From contig NZ_CP060530.1 of the NCBI RefSeq assembly GCF_016806735.1, forward strand, positions 690,001 through 722,000: a stretch of 32,000 nt of DNA, read 5' to 3'. Below are positions 24,036 to 32,000 of this stretch, piece by piece; position 1 is the stretch's first letter, and the number at the start of each line of letters is the position of its first letter. The translations under genes and the position numbers were made by a program. The notes under the pieces were generated by a model that worked only from the letters and a program-made list of their open reading frames with translations, searched no databases and was not told the origin of the DNA. This stretch comes from Candidatus Micrarchaeum sp. (GTDB taxonomy: Archaea; Micrarchaeota; Micrarchaeia; Micrarchaeales; Micrarchaeaceae).

Positions 24036-24166
24036 CATGAAATACGGTGCTTTGAAGTATTCTTATGTTGAAAAAAGACCATCAAAATATGAGATAAATA
24101 TAATTAGGGGTATAAACAAAAAATAAAAACCATTAATTCGGAAGACCGTTAAACGCTGTTGCCGAT

Positions 24167-24262
24167 TTAGTAATCGTCGCCTTCTTCGTCTTCGTCGTCG
24201 TCCATGTCGTCGTCGTCTTCGTCGTCTTCGTCGTCTTCGTCTACGTCTTCATCCTTTGCCAT
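24167..24262 (-). CDS. Candidate 31-aa hyper-acidic micro-protein (MAKDEDVDEDDEDDEDDDDMDDDEDEEGDDY)
   Basis: Hand translation of the minus strand gives ATG 24262 to TAA 24167. GGTGATC (an excellent anti-16S match) lies 3 nt upstream of the ATG. TATA-like cttataat and ttttatatc lie about 25-40 nt upstream. It is below the ORF-track size cutoff. Confidence 0.45.
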   Translation of the reverse strand: MAKDEDVDEDDEDDEDDDDMDDDEDEEGDDY

Positions 24263-24533
24263 TCGATCACCGAAAAGCTAGCATTATAAGGTATGCACAA
24301 AGATATAAAAGCTTTTGCGAATTGTACTGCCGATGGCCTGCCATACGCTGACAAACGGCAGAAACGGCGAGGTGGAGATTATAAAGATTTATATATTTAT
24401 CTCTAGTTAAATTAATCTGGTTCGGCAATTAATGGCCGGATTCGCATAAAGCTTAGTATGCTCATTCAAGCCGAACTGAAAGGACAAGCCCTGCTTGTAT
24501 ATAATATTAAGATAGAATTAATTGGTGAAATAA

Positions 24534-26238: not shown

Positions 26239-27300
26239 TCATTCTTTCGTAAGAAGGCGTATGTAGCTGTCGTACCTGTCCCTGCGGATCAGCCCTTCTT
26301 CAACCGCTTTTTTCACTGCACATCCTGGCTCATGCGAATGCGTGCAGTCCCTGAATTTGCAGTTTTGGGAAAACTCGGCAAATTCAGGATAATAAAGCCG
26401 AAGAGAATCTTTGTCTATTCCCCACATGCCGAGCGAGCGTATCCCGGGAGTGTCGATGAGCATTGTGGATTCTCCAAGAAGGTGCAATGAGGTAGTCGAA
26501 GTGGTATGAGTGCCTTTTCCTGATTTCCTGCCCACTTCGTCAGTCAGCAGCACTTCGTCGCCCAAAAGGCTGTTTATAAGTGACGATTTTCCAACCCCAC
26601 TGCTGCCTATCATGACGCATATTTTCCCTTTTATATAAGGAAGAAGCCTGTCAACGCCGTCCTTTGTTGCGTTTGAAACCTTAACCACTGGAAGATCGGC
26701 GCTTTCATACATGGATAAGTCAGGAGCCTTGGCCAAATCTGTTTTGGTAATGCAAAGCAATGGGCTTACATTTCCATACTGGCTTATTACGAGATACCTG
26801 TCCACCAGATTCGGATTGAACGGCGGCTGCACGGTCGAAGCTACTATCACCGCAATGTCTATATTTGCAGCAATAATGTGCTCTTCTGCACGAAGCACGG
26901 ACTTTTTCGATGTGTCCATGCGCAGCCTCGCAAGCTTTGAACGCCTGACGGTTATGCCTTTTATTATTGGGTTCTTGCCTTCAAGCGCAAAGATAACATT
27001 GTCCCCTATTGCTAGCTGGTCCAGAAGGTCCAGCTGGTAATCCGTTTCCGCTTTTCCCAATATGAAATGTTTATCGTGCAGGAGAGTGAATTTCGGAGGA
27101 TTAAGCTCGGCAAGTATGCCTATGCTGCCCAGTTTCTGGGCCTCGTTATTTTCGTAGACTTCTAGGTCGGCCCGGCTGCCAGTGCTTCCAATGCGGCTGT
27201 ATTCTGAGTCGTCGCCGGTGCTGTTGGCCTGCCTGAGAGATTTGATGCGCATTGCCCTGCGCGTCTTCCAATGCTCGGCATGACTGCCCTTGTTCTTCAT
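26239..27300 (-). CDS. rsgA: Ribosome small-subunit-dependent GTPase A (RsgA/YjeQ), circularly permuted GTPase
   Basis: The G-motif order is permuted: G4 ITKTD, then G1 GSSGVGKSS, then G3 DTPG. The C-terminal zinc knuckle is CKFRDCTHSHEPGC. An N-terminal OB region carries an extension of about 70 aa. Confidence 0.85.
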   Translation of the reverse strand: MKNKGSHAEHWKTRRAMRIKSLRQANSTGDDSEYSRIGSTGSRADLEVYENNEAQKLGSIGILAELNPPKFTLLHDKHFILGKAETDYQLDLLDQLAIGDNVIFALEGKNPIIKGITVRRSKLARLRMDTSKKSVLRAEEHIIAANIDIAVIVASTVQPPFNPNLVDRYLVISQYGNVSPLLCITKTDLAKAPDLSMYESADLPVVKVSNATKDGVDRLLPYIKGKICVMIGSSGVGKSSLINSLLGDEVLLTDEVGRKSGKGTHTTSTTSLHLLGESTMLIDTPGIRSLGMWGIDKDSLRLYYPEFAEFSQNCKFRDCTHSHEPGCAVKKAVEEGLIRRDRYDSYIRLLTKE

Positions 27301-27478
27301 GATATAAGTTTGGCACGTATAGATTTAAAGTAGCCACAGTGTTGTTTGTAGGTATAAATATTAATATGATATTTGAGCTATGGAAATCTGTTGATATATG
27401 TATTGCTTAGTTCAAGTACTGCATATTTAATAAATTTGCCAGTATTCATTTATTTGAAGCAAATGTTTTGGTGCAATA

Positions 27479-28459
27479 ATGCAAAATGACATTGATGCAA
27501 AAATTCTCCAGTGGAAAAGAGACCTTATTGAACATATAGTATATCTTGTGTGCTCAAAACAAAAAATCCCAACACCATATATAAACTTTGATGGATGTAG
27601 AGACGAAAGACCTAACCAGCTTGCACATTATCATCCCGATCAGCACATGATATGCGTATCTGAAAGGCAACTCCGCGTACAAAGTCTAGAAGGATTAAAA
27701 AGGACTGCAGTACACGAAGTAACACATGCATTAGGTTTTTATCAGCATGACGCCAATTTCGAGAATATGAATAGGGAGATAAACATAGAATTGGCTATGT
27801 ACAATCCAAGCAGTGTGATAAGCGGATTGGATAGAACTAAAACAGCAAATAAACCAACGCATACACGCAAAATAAGGACTGGGATCAGTGTATGCTCTGC
27901 TAATGGGTGCAACAAAAAGGCAATAAATATCTGCAGATATTGCATGAAGCGCTATTGCCAAATACATTCTGAGGCGCTGATGGTTTCTACTCTGGAGCAA
28001 ATAAATATGCTTAATCAATACGATGGAAAAAAACGCATAAAACTCGAAAAAGACTGGAATAAAGAGGGTGGCCATCCATGCATGCAATACACTGCAGAAT
28101 GGAATAACTGGTATGACGAAAGTAAAAAGATGACGTATGACGCTTTTGGCGCATTTCTGGGAGACGATAAGAGGATAACAGGCATAGCAAAAGAGCCTCC
28201 TTCTTTGTTTGTATACCCTATAGAGAATAGCACAAAAAATAAACTAAAAGAAAGCTATTCTCCTCTTACACAAAAGGATTTGGAAGATTCGAGAGATAAG
28301 CTTGGAATTGATATTGATTATACACAACCAGTAAAACCGGTTAAGAATGATGAGAGCAACAATGATGCAAAAGATAAGGAAATTGAAAAACCGGACAATA
28401 AAAAGAAAAAGAGCTTAGTAAATAAATTAAGAAAAGTTTTTGGAGTTAGAGATACATAG
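27479..28459 (+). CDS. Zincin metallopeptidase (HExxH...H, SprT/WLM/DUF45-like) fused to an AN1-like Cys/His zinc-finger cluster and a charged tail
   Basis: AVHEVTHALGFYQHD at aa 79-90 gives HExxH plus a third His. CSANGCNKKAINICRYCMKRYCQIH at aa 139-163 has the spacing C-x4-C-x7-C-x2-C-x4-C-x2-H. A later HPC lies at aa 199-201. The tail is K/D/E-rich. Confidence 0.65.
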   Translation: MQNDIDAKILQWKRDLIEHIVYLVCSKQKIPTPYINFDGCRDERPNQLAHYHPDQHMICVSERQLRVQSLEGLKRTAVHEVTHALGFYQHDANFENMNREINIELAMYNPSSVISGLDRTKTANKPTHTRKIRTGISVCSANGCNKKAINICRYCMKRYCQIHSEALMVSTLEQINMLNQYDGKKRIKLEKDWNKEGGHPCMQYTAEWNNWYDESKKMTYDAFGAFLGDDKRITGIAKEPPSLFVYPIENSTKNKLKESYSPLTQKDLEDSRDKLGIDIDYTQPVKPVKNDESNNDAKDKEIEKPDNKKKKSLVNKLRKVFGVRDT

Positions 28460-28526: not shown

Positions 28527-28907
28527 ATGAAACTTATCTACGCAAAATTATGGCTTAAGAAATACATTAAGTATAACCATGATAATTTAGACGAAAACGA
28601 TCTAAATAAAGCAATAATTAACCTTTCTCACAGGGTATTCAGATCACATGGGTTAAAGGACCACAACACTAGGCAAAAAATAAGGCAGATCTTAGTAAAT
28701 TATAGTAAAATTGAATTAGCCAAATATAACGTTTCTTTCGAAAAACCCCTCAAAGCACACTATATAAACCATGGCAAATATCCAAGAGTACGTGCACGTT
28801 GGGCAATGAGAGTTGTCAAGCGTATTTTACTATTTTTAGCAAAAATTGCTTATATTATAATAGTGGTAATTATTATTTTGTACATTATTTTTTATGTTCT
28901 CCAATAG
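28527..28907 (+). CDS. Hypothetical small basic protein with a C-terminal (tail-anchor) TM helix
   Basis: 126 aa. A lysine/arginine-rich soluble part is followed by ILLFLAKIAYIIIVVIIILYIIFYVL at the extreme C-terminus. Confidence 0.5.
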   Translation: MKLIYAKLWLKKYIKYNHDNLDENDLNKAIINLSHRVFRSHGLKDHNTRQKIRQILVNYSKIELAKYNVSFEKPLKAHYINHGKYPRVRARWAMRVVKRILLFLAKIAYIIIVVIIILYIIFYVLQ

Positions 28908-28943
28908 TTTCATTTTTAACATTTACCCAATTCTAAAGTCACA

Positions 28944-29077
28944 AGACCGCAAGAGGTTAGGCATAAATAAGTCAACTCTGTAGTATATGCAGAAGCACAT
29001 AAGAGAAGGCAAGAGAATCAAGGTTTATGGCAAAGTTATGGTAAAATTAAATAGTGTTGTTTATGGGTTTATTTGAT
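28944..29077 (+). repeat. 134-bp direct repeat, copy 1
   Basis: Aligned by eye to 31181-31314 at a constant offset of 2237 nt. There are only 3 mismatches (28953, 28955, 29039). Its 3' end contains the ATG and the first five codons (MGLFD) of the downstream ORF. Confidence 0.9.
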
Positions 29078-29866
29078 TTCCTTTTATGGCATCCTAAGGA
29101 AGAACGCTTATATAAAAGCTGGAATCATAGAAAATGGACTTGGGCAGGTCAGAAAATAGAACAAACAATATCAATAAACGAGGCAGTTGTTCGTATTTAC
29201 TGTGATCCTAATGATATTTCAGATGTGTATAAATGTACATTTAAAATATCTAAAGGAATATGCAGAATTAGAATAAGAAATTTTATTGATCAATTTAATA
29301 AGTTGCATAAAGAATATTGGTTAACTACTCCAGTAAATAATATCAAATTTAAGAAAGAAACAATTAGAAAAGCAATGCAGGGGCAAACATATGGTGGTAA
29401 GTATACTTATCCGGTAACTACTTACTTGTATACATTGAGAATTTTAGATAAAAATAAACTGAAAAATGAGAATATACAATCCCAAATTATTAGGAGACGA
29501 GGTACAGCAATAGTAGATACCCCAAAAGGGATACTTATTGCATCTCATCATAAAACTTGGCTTCTGCCAGGTGGAGGTGCAAATAGAGGAGAAAGTAGGG
29601 AAAAGGCAGCTATACGGGAACTAAGAGAGGAAACAGGATTACGAGCAACAAATTGTAAATATCTATTTGAATACAATGAACCAGATGATGGCAGAAGGAT
29701 TAGGAATCTGCATAAAGTATTTTTGATTGAAGCAGAAGGTAAACCCAGGCCAAATCATCATGATGTTCACCACTTAGCATTCTGGAAACCAGATTCAGAT
29801 ATCATTTTGAGTCCAACCACAAGAACAATTGTTGATAGATATCTAAATGAGTTTAAAATGCACTGA
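29063..29866 (+). CDS. Nudix hydrolase with an N-terminal domain of about 140 aa and unknown function
   Basis: The Nudix box GGGANRGESREKAAIRELREETGL is encoded at 29570-29641. The N-terminal half has no motif I recognise. I prefer ATG 29063 (MGLFDF...) over the track GTG 29054 because the same ATG context recurs in repeat copy 2. Confidence 0.75.
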   Translation: MGLFDFLLWHPKEERLYKSWNHRKWTWAGQKIEQTISINEAVVRIYCDPNDISDVYKCTFKISKGICRIRIRNFIDQFNKLHKEYWLTTPVNNIKFKKETIRKAMQGQTYGGKYTYPVTTYLYTLRILDKNKLKNENIQSQIIRRRGTAIVDTPKGILIASHHKTWLLPGGGANRGESREKAAIRELREETGLRATNCKYLFEYNEPDDGRRIRNLHKVFLIEAEGKPRPNHHDVHHLAFWKPDSDIILSPTTRTIVDRYLNEFKMH

Positions 29867-29886
29867 GCATATAAATGAGCTACAAT

Positions 29887-30693
29887 TTAGCCATTATATA
29901 CTGCATAGTGGTGTTGAATAGAATACCCAATCGGTGAGGCACAGTTACTTTGTAACAACTGATTGTTCATGTAATTTATTATACTTTTAGCATCTGGTGA
30001 ATTAAGCACAATACTTTGCCTTGGTGTTTGTGATAGGTTAACTATATTATTTACCCAACATGTAGTGTTACGGGCAGTTGCATTAACGTAATAAAATCCA
30101 CTCACATTATATTGCGCAGAGAAGCAAGTTTGTCCAAAATAACAATTTGTATAGTCTGTAATAGTTATCTGATCTGTCCAGTTTGCAGTCTGAAAGACAA
30201 CCTTCGAGTTATATGTTATCGATGGATAATACAAGAAGATGTAGGCAAGAATTAGTGGTACAACTATAAATGCAATCACATAGCCAATCATTTGTTTTTT
30301 CCTAGATGCAGAGATTATTTCGCCACTGCTCATTATTATGCCCCCAGCCAAAGCGACCAAAGGACCTATAAAAATATTAGACAACGTAGCAGCAGATGCA
30401 TATAGCCACATTACTGAACCAATACTAACTACAATACCTCGCCTTATAATTAACCCAATTGGGATTGCAAATAGAGTTAATAAGATTGCCAATTGAGGTA
30501 GTGAAGTAACGGTTAGTCCTTGGCCTGCTAATACACCAAATGCACCAAAACCAAATATCGAAAATATTACATCATAATAAAATGTTGCTAGACTTGTTGG
30601 TGAACCAGCAAAAATCATCCACTCTACAAATAAAGAGATAAATACGATTATTGCACCAAAGAAAATTATTCCTTGGGCACCCCTTATATGCAT
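29887..30693 (-). CDS. Hypothetical polytopic membrane protein with a Cys/Asn-rich extracytoplasmic C-terminal domain
   Basis: About 5-6 hydrophobic helices in the first 160 aa are followed by a domain with N-x-S/T sequons and 5 Cys. A TATA-like agtataaaac lies about 35 nt upstream of the ATG. Confidence 0.65.
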   Translation of the reverse strand: MHIRGAQGIIFFGAIIVFISLFVEWMIFAGSPTSLATFYYDVIFSIFGFGAFGVLAGQGLTVTSLPQLAILLTLFAIPIGLIIRRGIVVSIGSVMWLYASAATLSNIFIGPLVALAGGIIMSSGEIISASRKKQMIGYVIAFIVVPLILAYIFLYYPSITYNSKVVFQTANWTDQITITDYTNCYFGQTCFSAQYNVSGFYYVNATARNTTCWVNNIVNLSQTPRQSIVLNSPDAKSIINYMNNQLLQSNCASPIGYSIQHHYAVYNG

Positions 30694-31180
30694 GTTAGAA
30701 CCTTCTAAAATTCATAATTGCTATGTTTTATACTTATGATGTGACTCGGGATAATTTTTCATTTTTCTGCCTACTTTTGTTTTTCGCTGTATATAGTACT
30801 TGATTTTGCTTTATTTATCTTTGTAATATAATAATTTCAGCAGGAAACTTTTTACATTTTTTGAATTGCTAAAACTATTTTAGAATTATGCTTTAAAGAA
30901 ACATGAAATTTTCCGATGGCAGATTTTTGCTTCGACGCCAAAAATAGTGGTGCAAAATCTCTTCACTAGATATAACTCCTAAACAGAATAGGGAGTAAGC
31001 TAATCGCCTGTAAAATGGACGTTGTGGAATGTATATCACTTGCTATATTTCGGTATACAATTCTGTGTGCTTATTGTGCTGATTATTATATACTTATCAA
31101 GCTTAAATTTAACATGCCAGAACTCTGAATAAATTTGGATACACAGATATTAGCAATAAGATGCTTAGATTAACGCAATG

Positions 31181-31314
31181 AGACCGCAAAAAGTTAGGCA
31201 TAAATAAGTCAACTCTGTAGTATATGCAGAAGCACATAAGAGAAGGCAAGAGAATCAAGGTTTATGGCAAAGTTAGGGTAAAATTAAATAGTGTTGTTTA
31301 TGGGTTTATTTGAT
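31181..31314 (+). repeat. 134-bp direct repeat, copy 2
   Basis: 131/134 identical to 28944-29077. Its 3' end contains the ATG (31300) and the MGLFD codons of the C2H2 ORF. Confidence 0.9.
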
Positions 31315-32000
31315 AGATTTAAAGAAGCAAATAACTTTATTAGCAAGCTTTCAAATGACTTGTTTAAATGCAACATTTGTGGCATGCTCAGCAAGAATCA
31401 ACAGTCTATGCAAAATCACGTTGCTGGATTCCACAGCGAATACGTATTCTATAAACGTAAATATGGAAAAATTCCAGATATAGCAACAACCACTTGGATT
31501 AATATTTATTATAGAATATTGTATATGCCGCCTTTAAATTGGTCTGATAAACAGATAGAACTGGCTGCGAGCACGAATAAAGGCTTTATTATGAATGTTA
31601 CAAGAAGCATTCGACGGGTAGTTATTGATGGAAAAACAATTGGATATGTTAATCCTGTTTTAGGTGTAAATCCTCTTTTTAACTCACCCCCTCTTTATGG
31701 CCGACGTGCGTATATTCTTTTAGATCCGATTAACGGTAATACTTTTCCAGTTTCTAGAGAAGTTTTTGAAAGTATCAGTAAAGGAACGGCTTTAGAATAT
31801 CCCTTCCGTAGAGTTCACACAGTTAAGAGTACACCATTAAATGGGAATCAGAAACTAGTTGAGTTTTTAATTAGATTTAGAGAAGGAGGCTGGAACGGCC
31901 TGAGACTAGAGGATAAGAAAATACGTACTAAAGAGATACTTCCAACAGAAAGAATAACCTACGGTTATTCACCTTTAGATTTTATTCCAGATGCAAATAT
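31300..32000 (+). CDS. C2H2 zinc-finger protein, 3' end outside the window (not in the ORF track; hand-translated)
   Basis: Open from ATG 31300 to the window end (233 codons, no stop). The N-terminus is MGLFDRFKEANNF... The classical C2H2 finger CNICGMLSKNQQSMQNHVAGFH (C-x2-C-x12-H-x4-H) is encoded at 31369-31434. Confidence 0.65.
   Translation, partial: MGLFDRFKEANNFISKLSNDLFKCNICGMLSKNQQSMQNHVAGFHSEYVFYKRKYGKIPDIATTTWINIYYRILYMPPLNWSDKQIELAASTNKGFIMNVTRSIRRVVIDGKTIGYVNPVLGVNPLFNSPPLYGRRAYILLDPINGNTFPVSREVFESISKGTALEYPFRRVHTVKSTPLNGNQKLVEFLIRFREGGWNGLRLEDKKIRTKEILPTERITYGYSPLDFIPDAN

Follow-up and report, generated by a model that had tools for sequence, protein, structure and literature searches.

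How do two unrelated genes come to have the same upstream region and the same start? This question is raised by a stretch of 32,000 nt from Candidatus Micrarchaeum sp. (NCBI RefSeq assembly GCF_016806735.1, contig NZ_CP060530.1, positions 690,001 to 722,000 of the forward strand), which is called the window here. It carries a pair of 134-bp direct repeats, copies A and B, one of which leads into a gene for a Nudix fusion protein and the other into a gene for a C2H2-type protein. A preliminary description of this DNA took the repeat for a fixed promoter, leader and start module, behind which genes are exchanged as cassettes. Instead, the sequence comparisons show the repeat to be the dead 3' end of a casposase gene. 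The island in which it lies is likely to be a stack of decayed casposon cargo arms beside a tRNA-Pro gene, each made up of a cas1 stub, cargo, a terminal inverted repeat (TIR) and a target-site duplication (TSD), with at least two such arms in the window.

Identity of the repeat pair and of its shared start

The pair itself is as first described. A repeat search and a MAFFT alignment give 131 identical positions out of 134 at an offset of 2237 nt, and both copies run 15 nt into an open reading frame (ORF) that begins ATG GGT TTA TTT GAT (MGLFD), after which the two ORFs diverge fully (coordinates are in Table 1). The edges of the repeat are sharp. The sole other long repeat in the window is a low-complexity run of acidic codons, and repeated 16-mers are confined to the 134-nt pair and three unrelated spots. 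The copies differ at diagnostic sites 10, 12 and 96, which are G, G and T in copy A and A, A and G in copy B. Between them lie the Nudix gene, a minus-strand gene for a membrane protein of 268 aa and an ORF-free stretch of 487 nt. Two parts of the preliminary description hold only by half. Neither flank aligns between the copies in MAFFT, but the upstream flank of copy B is further cas1 sequence; and the stretch of about 490 bp taken as non-coding does lack an ORF, but it contains a fossil transposon junction and about 180 nt of cas1 pseudogene.

The presence of two copies does not stem from the assembly. Each of the 15 inspected loci with the 2237-bp unit has both of them; the loci compared were contigs that encode the cassette proteins, and all are at least 99.6% identical to the window. 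Exact island proteins are present in Ca. Micrarchaeum sp. (strain AZ1, ARMAN metagenome-assembled genomes (MAGs), A_DKE). In the closed 989,838-bp chromosome of Ca. Micrarchaeum harzensis A_DKE, assembled from PacBio and Illumina reads (PMC8975820), the 126-aa protein encoded upstream of copy A and the Nudix fusion have neighbouring accessions, and this genome presumably has copy B as well.

By its translation and alignments, the repeat is composed of the last 40 or so codons of a gene for a casposase (Cas1 with a C-terminal helix-turn-helix, HTH), an 8-nt spacer and 15 nt of a cargo gene start. In one frame the repeat translates as DRKRLGINKSTL*YMQKHIREGKRIKVYGKV... A scan for HIREGKRIKVYGK with degenerate codons, in one genome per species and with a representative of the window's species that is without the island, gave matches in 13 Micrarchaeota/Marsarchaeota genomes. 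The ORFs around these matches read ...LTPEDRKRLGINKSTLWYMQKHIKEGKRIKVYGKV..., which is the Cas1 C-terminus, and a 190-aa fragment in L012 matches Pfam Cas_Cas1 with E=6e-19. An intact Cas1 of 388-389 aa is encoded beside the island in L002 and L005 and has the same C-terminal ending. By tblastn (E=4e-12), Cas1 aa 349-387 fall on relic A, with 74% identity, and aa 341-387 on relic B. By blastn, cas1 nt 1081-1201 fall on relic A and nt 1005-1201 on relic B, with 78-88% identity. A scan of viral contigs for the cas1 end gave no match.

Both relics carry the same two lesions relative to intact cas1, a TGG->TAG change at a conserved Trp codon and a 1-nt deletion (ATGGGTAAAAT -> ATGGTAAAAT) near the natural stop. 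Relic A is the C-terminal HTH part, with its 5' end cut off against the flank of the 126-aa gene; its in-frame TAG is at 28981-28983, its deletion within 29035-29047 and its natural stop, also TAG, at 29052-29054. Relic B has frameshifting indels, a TGA at 31179-31181, the TAG at 31218-31220, the same deletion within 31272-31284 and its natural stop at 31289-31291. Upstream of it are about 100 nt of more decayed sequence, which it has in common with the stub of another locus, L046. In both copies the natural cas1 stop is followed by the same 8 nt and then by the cargo ATG. Since the upstream flank of copy A is unrelated to cas1, while that of copy B is still cas1-like, with frameshifts, for about 180 nt (GCTTAGATTAACGCAATG vs GCTTAGCCTAACGCCAGA), the 5' edge of the repeat marks the truncation point of relic A. 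Its 3' edge, as the alignment reads, is the end of homology between the two cargo genes.

We had considered a full-length 60-aa HTH gene (MFSN...) at copy A, a paralogue of a 69-aa gene further along the island. This frame is the Cas1 C-terminus instead, and the 17 codons upstream at copy A are not cas1-like. A 29-aa ORF (MQKHIREGKRIKVYGKV[M/R]VKLNSVVYGFI) is called inside each repeat (29001-29090 and 31238-31327; L001 9381-9470, minus strand). It reads as the frameshifted tail of the cas1 pseudogene and not as a gene.

The shared start follows from this identity. Both cargo families are found behind cas1 stubs elsewhere. In L023, another Micrarchaeota MAG, the gene behind a cas1 stub encodes a full-length homologue of the Nudix fusion (44% identity, E=7e-70), which starts MRILDLLFGWRPKK where that of the window has MGLFDFLLWHPKE, and homologues of the C2H2 protein stand behind cas1 stubs in L020 and L022 (E about 1e-30). 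The ending ...AATAGTGTTGTTCATGGGTTTATTTGAT|TTCC is also seen in the diverged stubs that precede Nudix in L044, L045 and L046. The start is thus part of a junction that this casposon lineage conserves, and MGLFD is common to both genes because the first cargo gene begins 8 nt after the cas1 stop inside that junction; homology between the arms stops after codon 5. Other starts behind stubs are MGIFDKKYECKICSYK... in L021 and MGIFDKLIGK... in L016, and related MGLFD, MRILD and MGIFD starts are found on homologous or analogous cargo genes elsewhere. N-termini like MGxFD also occur on unrelated proteins, for example PspA/Vipp1, so their recurrence alone proves little. A universal MGxFD start for casposon cargo was considered and rejected, since the first cargo gene has it in none of the seven intact casposons compared.

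Intact casposons and a fossil junction at the same tRNA gene

Intact elements of this kind are found at the same tRNA-Pro gene. In L024 (the contig of L002; 1-9560), tRNA-Pro is followed by CCCATTCTGTTTAT, a TIR of about 70 bp, about 9.4 kb of genes, the inverted TIR and again CCCATTCTGTTTAT, which is a 14-bp TSD. The TIRs of this element are near-perfect, and matching TIRs are found at the tRNA-proximal end of the island, in L005 and in L025. It encodes an 878-aa candidate family-B DNA polymerase (PolB), four small genes, a 315-aa gene, Cas1 and cargo genes. The Cas1 of the intact neighbours matches Pfam Cas_Cas1 (E=8e-56) and TIGR00287 (E=3e-53, for L024), and its nearest named homologues are those of Nitrosopumilus/Nitrososphaera, with 55-59% identity. 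The translation of the 878-aa protein (L024 218-2854, minus strand) contains ExoI (FDTET), ExoII (NLPFD) and ExoIII (YNINDV), together with the Pol motifs A (FTSMYPTQ), B (KIIANATSYG), C (YCDTDS) and KRY. These motifs make up the complete family-B set and suggest a PolB of very divergent sequence, whose C-terminal domain is homologous to the Cas1 C-terminus. The last 45 or so residues of Cas1, its predicted HTH, lie outside the Pfam Cas1 domain (the profile match ends at aa 286 of 389) and are homologous to the PolB C-terminus and to the 69-aa ORF (score 62-64 vs 25+-4.7 for shuffles, 0/10000; tblastn E=1.6e-4). The island's own polB remnant is only the 69-aa polB-3'-like ORF, which lies outside the window.

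The insertion site is occupied in some strains (L002/L024, L005-7) and empty in others (L001, 6552-6634; L003, L004, L008), and it is exactly the tRNA-Pro 3' end. Since occupied and empty strains are at least 99.98% identical over the shared flank, casposons have been mobile recently. The core is common to all seven intact relatives, and the cargo after cas1 differs completely among them. The cas1 genes of L002 and L005 are 97% identical, and this homology ends 31 nt before the cas1 stop. By these comparisons, L002 and L005 provide evidence of recent casposon mobility and of cargo swapping in Ca. Micrarchaeum. The cargo of L002/L024 includes an RGP and a glycosyltransferase, and that of L005 (1-6310) a methylase fragment, a LamG protein and an amino-acid kinase.

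The same kind of junction is preserved as a fossil between the two repeat copies. Read on the minus strand from 30998 to 30966, it is CTTACTCCCTATTCTGTTTA-GGAGTTATATCTAG, a fragment of the tRNA-Pro 3' end, the TSD or spacer and the start of a degenerate TIR (TIR'), which continues to about 30930 (about 30930-30978). The live junction of tRNA end, spacer and TIR reads CCTACTCCCCATTCTGTTTATGGGGGTTATATATAG. The two have 32 identical positions, with a score of 42 against 16.6+-2.1 for shuffles (0/1000, z about 12). A diverged copy of the TSD, CCCTATTCTGTTTA, is present at the fossil (TSD'), in which only 30979-30998 are derived from tRNA and TSD. Sequence like the tRNA-Pro acceptor end (CTTACTCCC / CGGCTCCCC) directly abuts the 5' end of the same dead stub at window 30993-30998 and at about 130-150 of L046. 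These two contacts are at different loci in different genomes, and both have more tRNA sequence than a 14-bp TSD accounts for.

This fossil also bears on another account, by which the repeats would be the scar of a local duplication, or the attL and attR of an integrase-type element, unrelated to casposons. Direct repeats around a 2.2-kb segment beside a tRNA gene would fit that account, as would a fossil with more tRNA sequence than a casposon TSD should have. However, the repeat is derived from cas1 and not from a tRNA, which already contradicts it. Copy B extends upstream as a cas1 pseudogene, the TIR fossil lies inside the unit and 134 bp far exceeds any transposase TSD. In addition, Pfam and PHROGs searches of the island proteins found no tyrosine or serine recombinase. 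We therefore regard this account as extremely improbable. Repeats of the SSV type, made by a tyrosine integrase, were rejected on the same grounds, since the island has no integrase and the repeats are not tRNA-derived.

Exchange between stubs and what may have driven it

The stubs have exchanged sequence. Stub A is 98% identical to stub B and only 85% identical to the stub of L044/L045, though the Nudix gene of L044/L045 is 93% identical to that of the window. Since stub A is closer to stub B than to the stub of its closest Nudix allele, sequence has passed between the stubs. Diagnostic site 96 is swapped between the copies in two strains: copy A of L001 reads G, G and G, and copy B of L003 reads A, A and T, in each case as one of two differences in 12 kb. 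Frameshifting indels upstream of the repeat are also common to stub B, which heads C2H2, and the Nudix-linked stubs of L046 and L044. From the membrane protein to C2H2, L044 is 99-99.9% identical to the window. A reading of L044 as the unconverted ancestor of copy A is weakened by the divergence of its whole segment of stub and Nudix gene (15% in the stub, 7% in Nudix). It is a diverged allele, and thus only the incongruence between stub and cargo supports exchange there.

Recombination between the copies was predicted to excise the 2237-bp unit as a circle. The chromosomal product of this prediction is found, which supports the copies as substrates of homologous recombination: in two independent assemblies, L030 and L033, the 126-aa gene is followed by one repeat and the C2H2 gene, with 2237 bp missing. 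L030 (JGI 3300030335, a 78.7-kb short-read contig) has the left flank of A, one repeat (G, G and T) and the right flank of B, and it differs from the L001-type strain in the missing unit only. L033 (ACXJ01009115.1), from Sanger shotgun sequencing at Richmond Mine, has the same join with a repeat that is fully of the B type. This data set is a Sanger-era shotgun of Richmond Mine biofilms with inserts of about 3 kb (PMC2745766). The predicted circle itself was not seen: the junction of B-left with A-right (TTAACGCAATG-[repeat]-TTCCTTTTATGG), expected of a circle or a tandem, does not occur among the contigs examined, though no search was aimed at circle junctions, and a metagenome scan returned a single contig. 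Nudix-carrying contigs of about 2.3-2.6 kb were considered as circle or loop contigs and proved to be ordinary linear variants.

We propose that casposons, self-synthesizing transposons which bring a Cas1-type casposase and their own family-B DNA polymerase, have inserted at the tRNA-Pro 3' end, where their arms are stacked. Arm E1 runs from stub A through the Nudix fusion and the membrane protein to the fossil TIR'/TSD'. Arm E2 runs from stub B through the C2H2 protein, the polB-like HTH ORF and three more genes to the TIR, the TSD and tRNA-Pro. Homologous exchange, as gene conversion or crossover, would then keep or create the 98% identity of the stubs, including the two shared lesions, and the same homology would yield alleles that differ by exactly the 2237-bp unit. 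As to the order of events, tandem insertion may have been followed by deletions, or an excised arm may have integrated by homologous recombination; the alleles do not polarise loss and gain. The stub may also have a role in the expression of the cargo.

Several observations weigh against this history. The one-copy allele of L030 could be a de Bruijn loop collapse, since the loop between repeats of 134 bp may be skipped in short-read assembly, and L033 is a small, low-coverage composite Sanger contig. Upstream lesions that are common to stubs with different cargo fit duplication or recombination of a dead unit better than two independent active insertions. The fossil retains 6-7 nt of the tRNA acceptor end past the 14-bp TSD, which simple tandem transposition does not predict. 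The 878-aa protein of L024 has no match in Pfam, NCBIfam, PHROGs or PDB sequences, and its PolB identity comes from motifs read in translation and a weak PF00136 match of its L034 homologue. Lastly, when another TIR was sought within the island and at its edge with the RsgA-type GTPase gene, TIR and TSD searches gave the 30966-30998 fossil alone. No distal TIR was found for either arm or at that edge, and the history of the arms is therefore reconstructed from one end only.

The cassette explanation has to be weighed at this point. It holds that the 134 bp are a fixed promoter, leader and start module behind which genes are swapped as 2-kb circles, much as in integrons. The one-copy alleles do place the C2H2 gene in the position of the Nudix gene. 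A conserved upstream module in front of unrelated genes, as the preliminary description had it, is also borne out across strains and loci, since the same dead cas1 stub with shared frameshifts heads C2H2 here and Nudix in L044, L045 and L046. The last 45 or so nt of the stub, with an A/T-rich, TATA-like box at 29042-29053 (10-21 nt upstream of the ATG), are better kept between diverged stubs than the remainder. A circle of [stub-Nudix-membrane-TIR'-TSD'] that entered a truncated stub would also give the observed asymmetry, in which A is truncated and B extends upstream.

However, a dedicated module is contradicted by the identity of the sequence, which is the 3' end of a casposase gene with its natural stop 8 nt before the cargo ATG. 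Pfam and PHROGs searches of the island proteins found no recombinase gene, there is no attC- or attI-like site, and cas1 coding sequence is the sole sequence that can be recognised. The breakpoints vary: in L002/L005 the break falls 31 nt short of the cas1 stop, and in L043 and L044 it coincides with the Nudix end. The absence of MGxFD from all seven intact elements speaks against a fixed start module, as does an MG[FL]FDRF start (MGFFDRF) on a polB-arm protein of L034, away from any cas1 junction. The missing circle or tandem junction counts against it too, and the B-like left flank of L044 is a paralogous stub that is 15% diverged. Neither is there a leader signal. The repeat has no Rfam match at E<=1, and its minimum free energy is -19.9 against -19.87 for shuffles (z = -0.01); a structured RNA or riboswitch leader was rejected on these two results. 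We consider the cassette explanation unlikely.

A broader form of the idea is somewhat better placed, though we hold it only tentatively and think it more doubtful than not. The conserved HTH-coding 3' end of cas1, alive or dead, and the TIR might act as portable homology arms, through which general recombination among casposons and graveyards of a population would swap, add or remove whole cargo arms, with the stub also supplying putative expression signals and the start codon. The graveyard of arms would then be a cassette store driven by recombination. If this is true, it would store accessory genes (Nudix/MazG nucleotide hydrolases, nucleases, methylases and zinc-finger proteins) for a genome-reduced DPANN symbiont.

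The arms could also have moved as non-autonomous casposon derivatives, in which a unit of tRNA-end-like sequence, about 300 nt of dead cas1 stub, cargo and TIR is copied or mobilised in trans or from one end. Stub B and the L046 stub have the same 5' end (GCTAATCGCCTG...), abut 9-10 nt that resemble the tRNA-Pro end and share frameshifts, though their cargo and chromosomal context differ. In addition, each of the nine independent relics examined keeps the last 65-300 nt of cas1 only. However, the relics were sought with a pattern from the final 100 nt of cas1, which biases this census, and the common 5' end may stem from one old deletion followed by replacement of cargo. Each unit has one TIR, nothing like a TIR is found at the stub end, and no TSD pair can be defined for a unit. 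Such derivatives are thus highly unlikely in our view, and we retain the reading of decayed casposon arms whose stubs recombine.

Relation to known systems and further features of the island

There are several known systems with which these arms can be compared. The reported features of casposons include a C-terminal HTH on Cas1 and PolB, targeting of tRNA-Pro, tandem arrays with inactivated copies, solo TIRs and 14-bp TSDs (PMC4046053, PMC4779613, PMC6563490). The HTH pair on Cas1 and PolB is the hallmark of family 2 casposons as described by Krupovic et al. 2014 (PMC4046053), and tRNA-Pro is the target of AciBoo-C1 and NitNCS1-C1 (PMC4046053, PMC6563490). The Micrarchaeum elements resemble this family (AciBoo-C1 of Aciduliprofundum boonei, NitNCS1-C1 of Ca. 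Nitrosotalea okcheonensis and the Methanosarcina casposons) in the HTH of Cas1 and of the candidate PolB, the TIRs, the 14-bp TSD and the tRNA-Pro 3' end. As in that family, both orientations occur, and the cargo is element-specific, with HNH nucleases and methyltransferases among it (PMC4046053, PMC6563490, PMC4779613). They differ in that the host is a DPANN archaeon (Micrarchaeota) and the window holds relics only, with no active element. Furthermore, three to four small genes lie directly upstream of polB here, an arrangement given in the literature for family 1 (PMC6563490). The candidate PolB of Micrarchaeum escapes sequence searches of Pfam, NCBIfam, PHROG and PDB, and the likeness to family 2 is one of features.

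The preliminary description called the arrangement unusual for archaea, which does not hold, since tandem and partly decayed casposons at one target are documented (PMC4779613, PMC6563490). The literature likens such build-up at one attachment site to Tn7-style islands (PMC4779613, PMC6563490). The tandem arrays and solo-TIR remnants of Methanosarcina and Nitrosopumilus (Krupovic et al. 2016, 2019) are like the island in the re-use of a target, in neighbours separated by a common TSD, in the inactivation of older copies and in remnants that last. Unlike in those arrays, the survivor here is a cargo arm headed by a short casposase stub, and not a solo TIR or a full-length dead copy. The stubs here are direct repeats that homogenise and mediate gain and loss of arms, and stubs with shared lesions head different cargo. 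A literature search found no description of casposons in Micrarchaeota. This is a known kind of element, tandem casposon remnants, and apparently new for Micrarchaeota.

Two other systems show partial likeness. In integron cassettes, variable or promoterless genes also stand behind a fixed upstream module and circular intermediates are predicted, whereas here there is no IntI-type recombinase and no attI or attC, and the breakpoints are not fixed. In phage mosaicism, as in the modular theory of Susskind and Botstein and in the mosaic junctions of lambdoid and HK97-type phages, conserved boundary sequences flank the exchanged modules. By analogy, the cas1 3' end and the TIR could be seen as conserved boundaries around variable modules that are swapped by homologous recombination. 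In contrast to phage mosaics, the conserved flank here is the end of a dead integrase gene in a chromosomal transposon array, and the exchange appears as indel polymorphism in a cellular population. All the exchange seen is explicable by general homologous recombination.

The findings turn a repeat that gave two genes one start into a readable record of transposon history, with casposons present and recently mobile in Ca. Micrarchaeum. This organism is a cultivated DPANN symbiont of about 1 Mb for which a closed genome and public RNA-seq exist, so that the insertion and decay of casposons and the turnover of their cargo are open to study in a tractable co-culture. Natural acid-mine populations, sampled since about 2005, can likewise be used to follow casposon turnover. 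The mode of decay, in which stub-headed cargo arms survive, homogenise and mediate presence/absence polymorphism, has been little stressed in the casposon literature. As regards annotation, both the 29-aa ORF and the "HTH protein" of 69 aa derive from the cas1 and polB ends, as relics or as duplicates, and the 487-nt "intergenic" region is a pseudogene with a fossil transposon end.

Table 1. Features of the island in window coordinates; positions beyond 32000 are window-equivalent.
Feature	Position	Strand	Evidence or content
Island distal edge	27301..27478	.	Composition profiles; without recognisable TIR or TSD
326-aa gene	27479..28459	+	HExxH; weak SprT-like and zinc-finger matches
126-aa gene	28527..28907	+	Homologue with 70% identity in the intact casposon L034 (9278-9640), second among the cargo genes behind cas1
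cas1 relic A	28933..29054	+	Last ~121 nt of cas1; blastn 87.6% to L036 cas1 nt 1081-1201
Repeat copy A	28944..29077	+	cas1 relic A, then the 8-nt spacer (TGTTGTTT) and 15 nt (MGLFD) from the start of the Nudix gene
Nudix fusion gene, 267 aa	29063..29866	+	First cargo gene of arm E1; Pfam NUDIX E=5.6e-15
268-aa membrane protein gene	29887..30693	-	Second cargo gene of arm E1
Fossil insertion junction of arm E1	30930..30998	-	Local alignment; MAFFT with real tRNA/TSD/TIR; TSD search
cas1 relic B	31000..31291	+	197 nt or more of the cas1 3' end (blastn, 31098-31289 to cas1 nt 1005-1201)
Repeat copy B	31181..31314	+	cas1 relic B (3' part), then the spacer and 15 nt from the start of the C2H2 gene
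C2H2-type 342-aa gene	31300..32000, past window end; stop at 32328	+	Weak C2H2 match; first cargo gene of arm E2
Island TIR	34004-34059		tRNA-proximal end; 83% identical to TIR of intact elements
tRNA-Pro(UGG)	34070-34142	-	3' end directed into the island

The island begins where GC content falls from about 0.47 to about 0.33, at about 27300, directly after the host gene for an RsgA-type GTPase. Its order is the 326- and 126-aa genes, then stub A, Nudix, the membrane protein and TIR'/TSD', then stub B, C2H2, the 69-aa HTH ORF and the 276-, 94- and 91-aa genes, and lastly the TIR, the TSD and tRNA-Pro; everything from the 69-aa ORF onwards lies beyond the window. An intact casposon carries a homologue of the 126-aa protein as cargo, so the 326/126 segment probably represents an older arm, the third, and the 326-aa gene is probably its cargo.

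The 69-aa ORF (window-equivalent 32345-32554; L001 8140-8349, minus strand) is 85% identical to the PolB C-terminus. Further polB-3'-like copies lie just inside the cas1-side TIR in L025 (8882-8966) and L023 (6437-6568, reverse-complement coordinates), and therefore the ORF belongs to the same arm. Such a copy of the HTH-coding polB 3' end (82-86% DNA identity) stands inverted on the cas1/cargo arm just inside the TIR and sometimes forms an intact 69-aa ORF. From its position and coding content, it would effectively be an extended TIR or a stand-alone HTH protein. The gene downstream of it is called with 236 aa in some strains and 276 aa in others (L001 7308-8018 vs L002 7307-8137), which is an indel or frameshift polymorphism in the start region.

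The gene after the Nudix fusion differs in relatives. L043 (1901-2344), L045 (962-1657) and L046 (1257-2252) have three different genes there, none of which is that of the membrane protein. The arm of L045 again ends at a TIR-like sequence beside tRNA-Pro, and L046 adjoins genes of DNA polymerase D.

Two features lie in the window outside the island. The RsgA-type ribosome-biogenesis GTPase gene (26239-27300, minus strand; Pfam E=1.8e-47) lies in DNA of host GC content and borders the island; this family is known chiefly from bacteria. The low-complexity repeat is a run of GAC/GAA-type codons on the minus strand (24165-24266; TCGTCG/TCTTCG repeats) between the CDC48 and EF-1alpha genes, and it probably encodes the acidic tail of a small protein.

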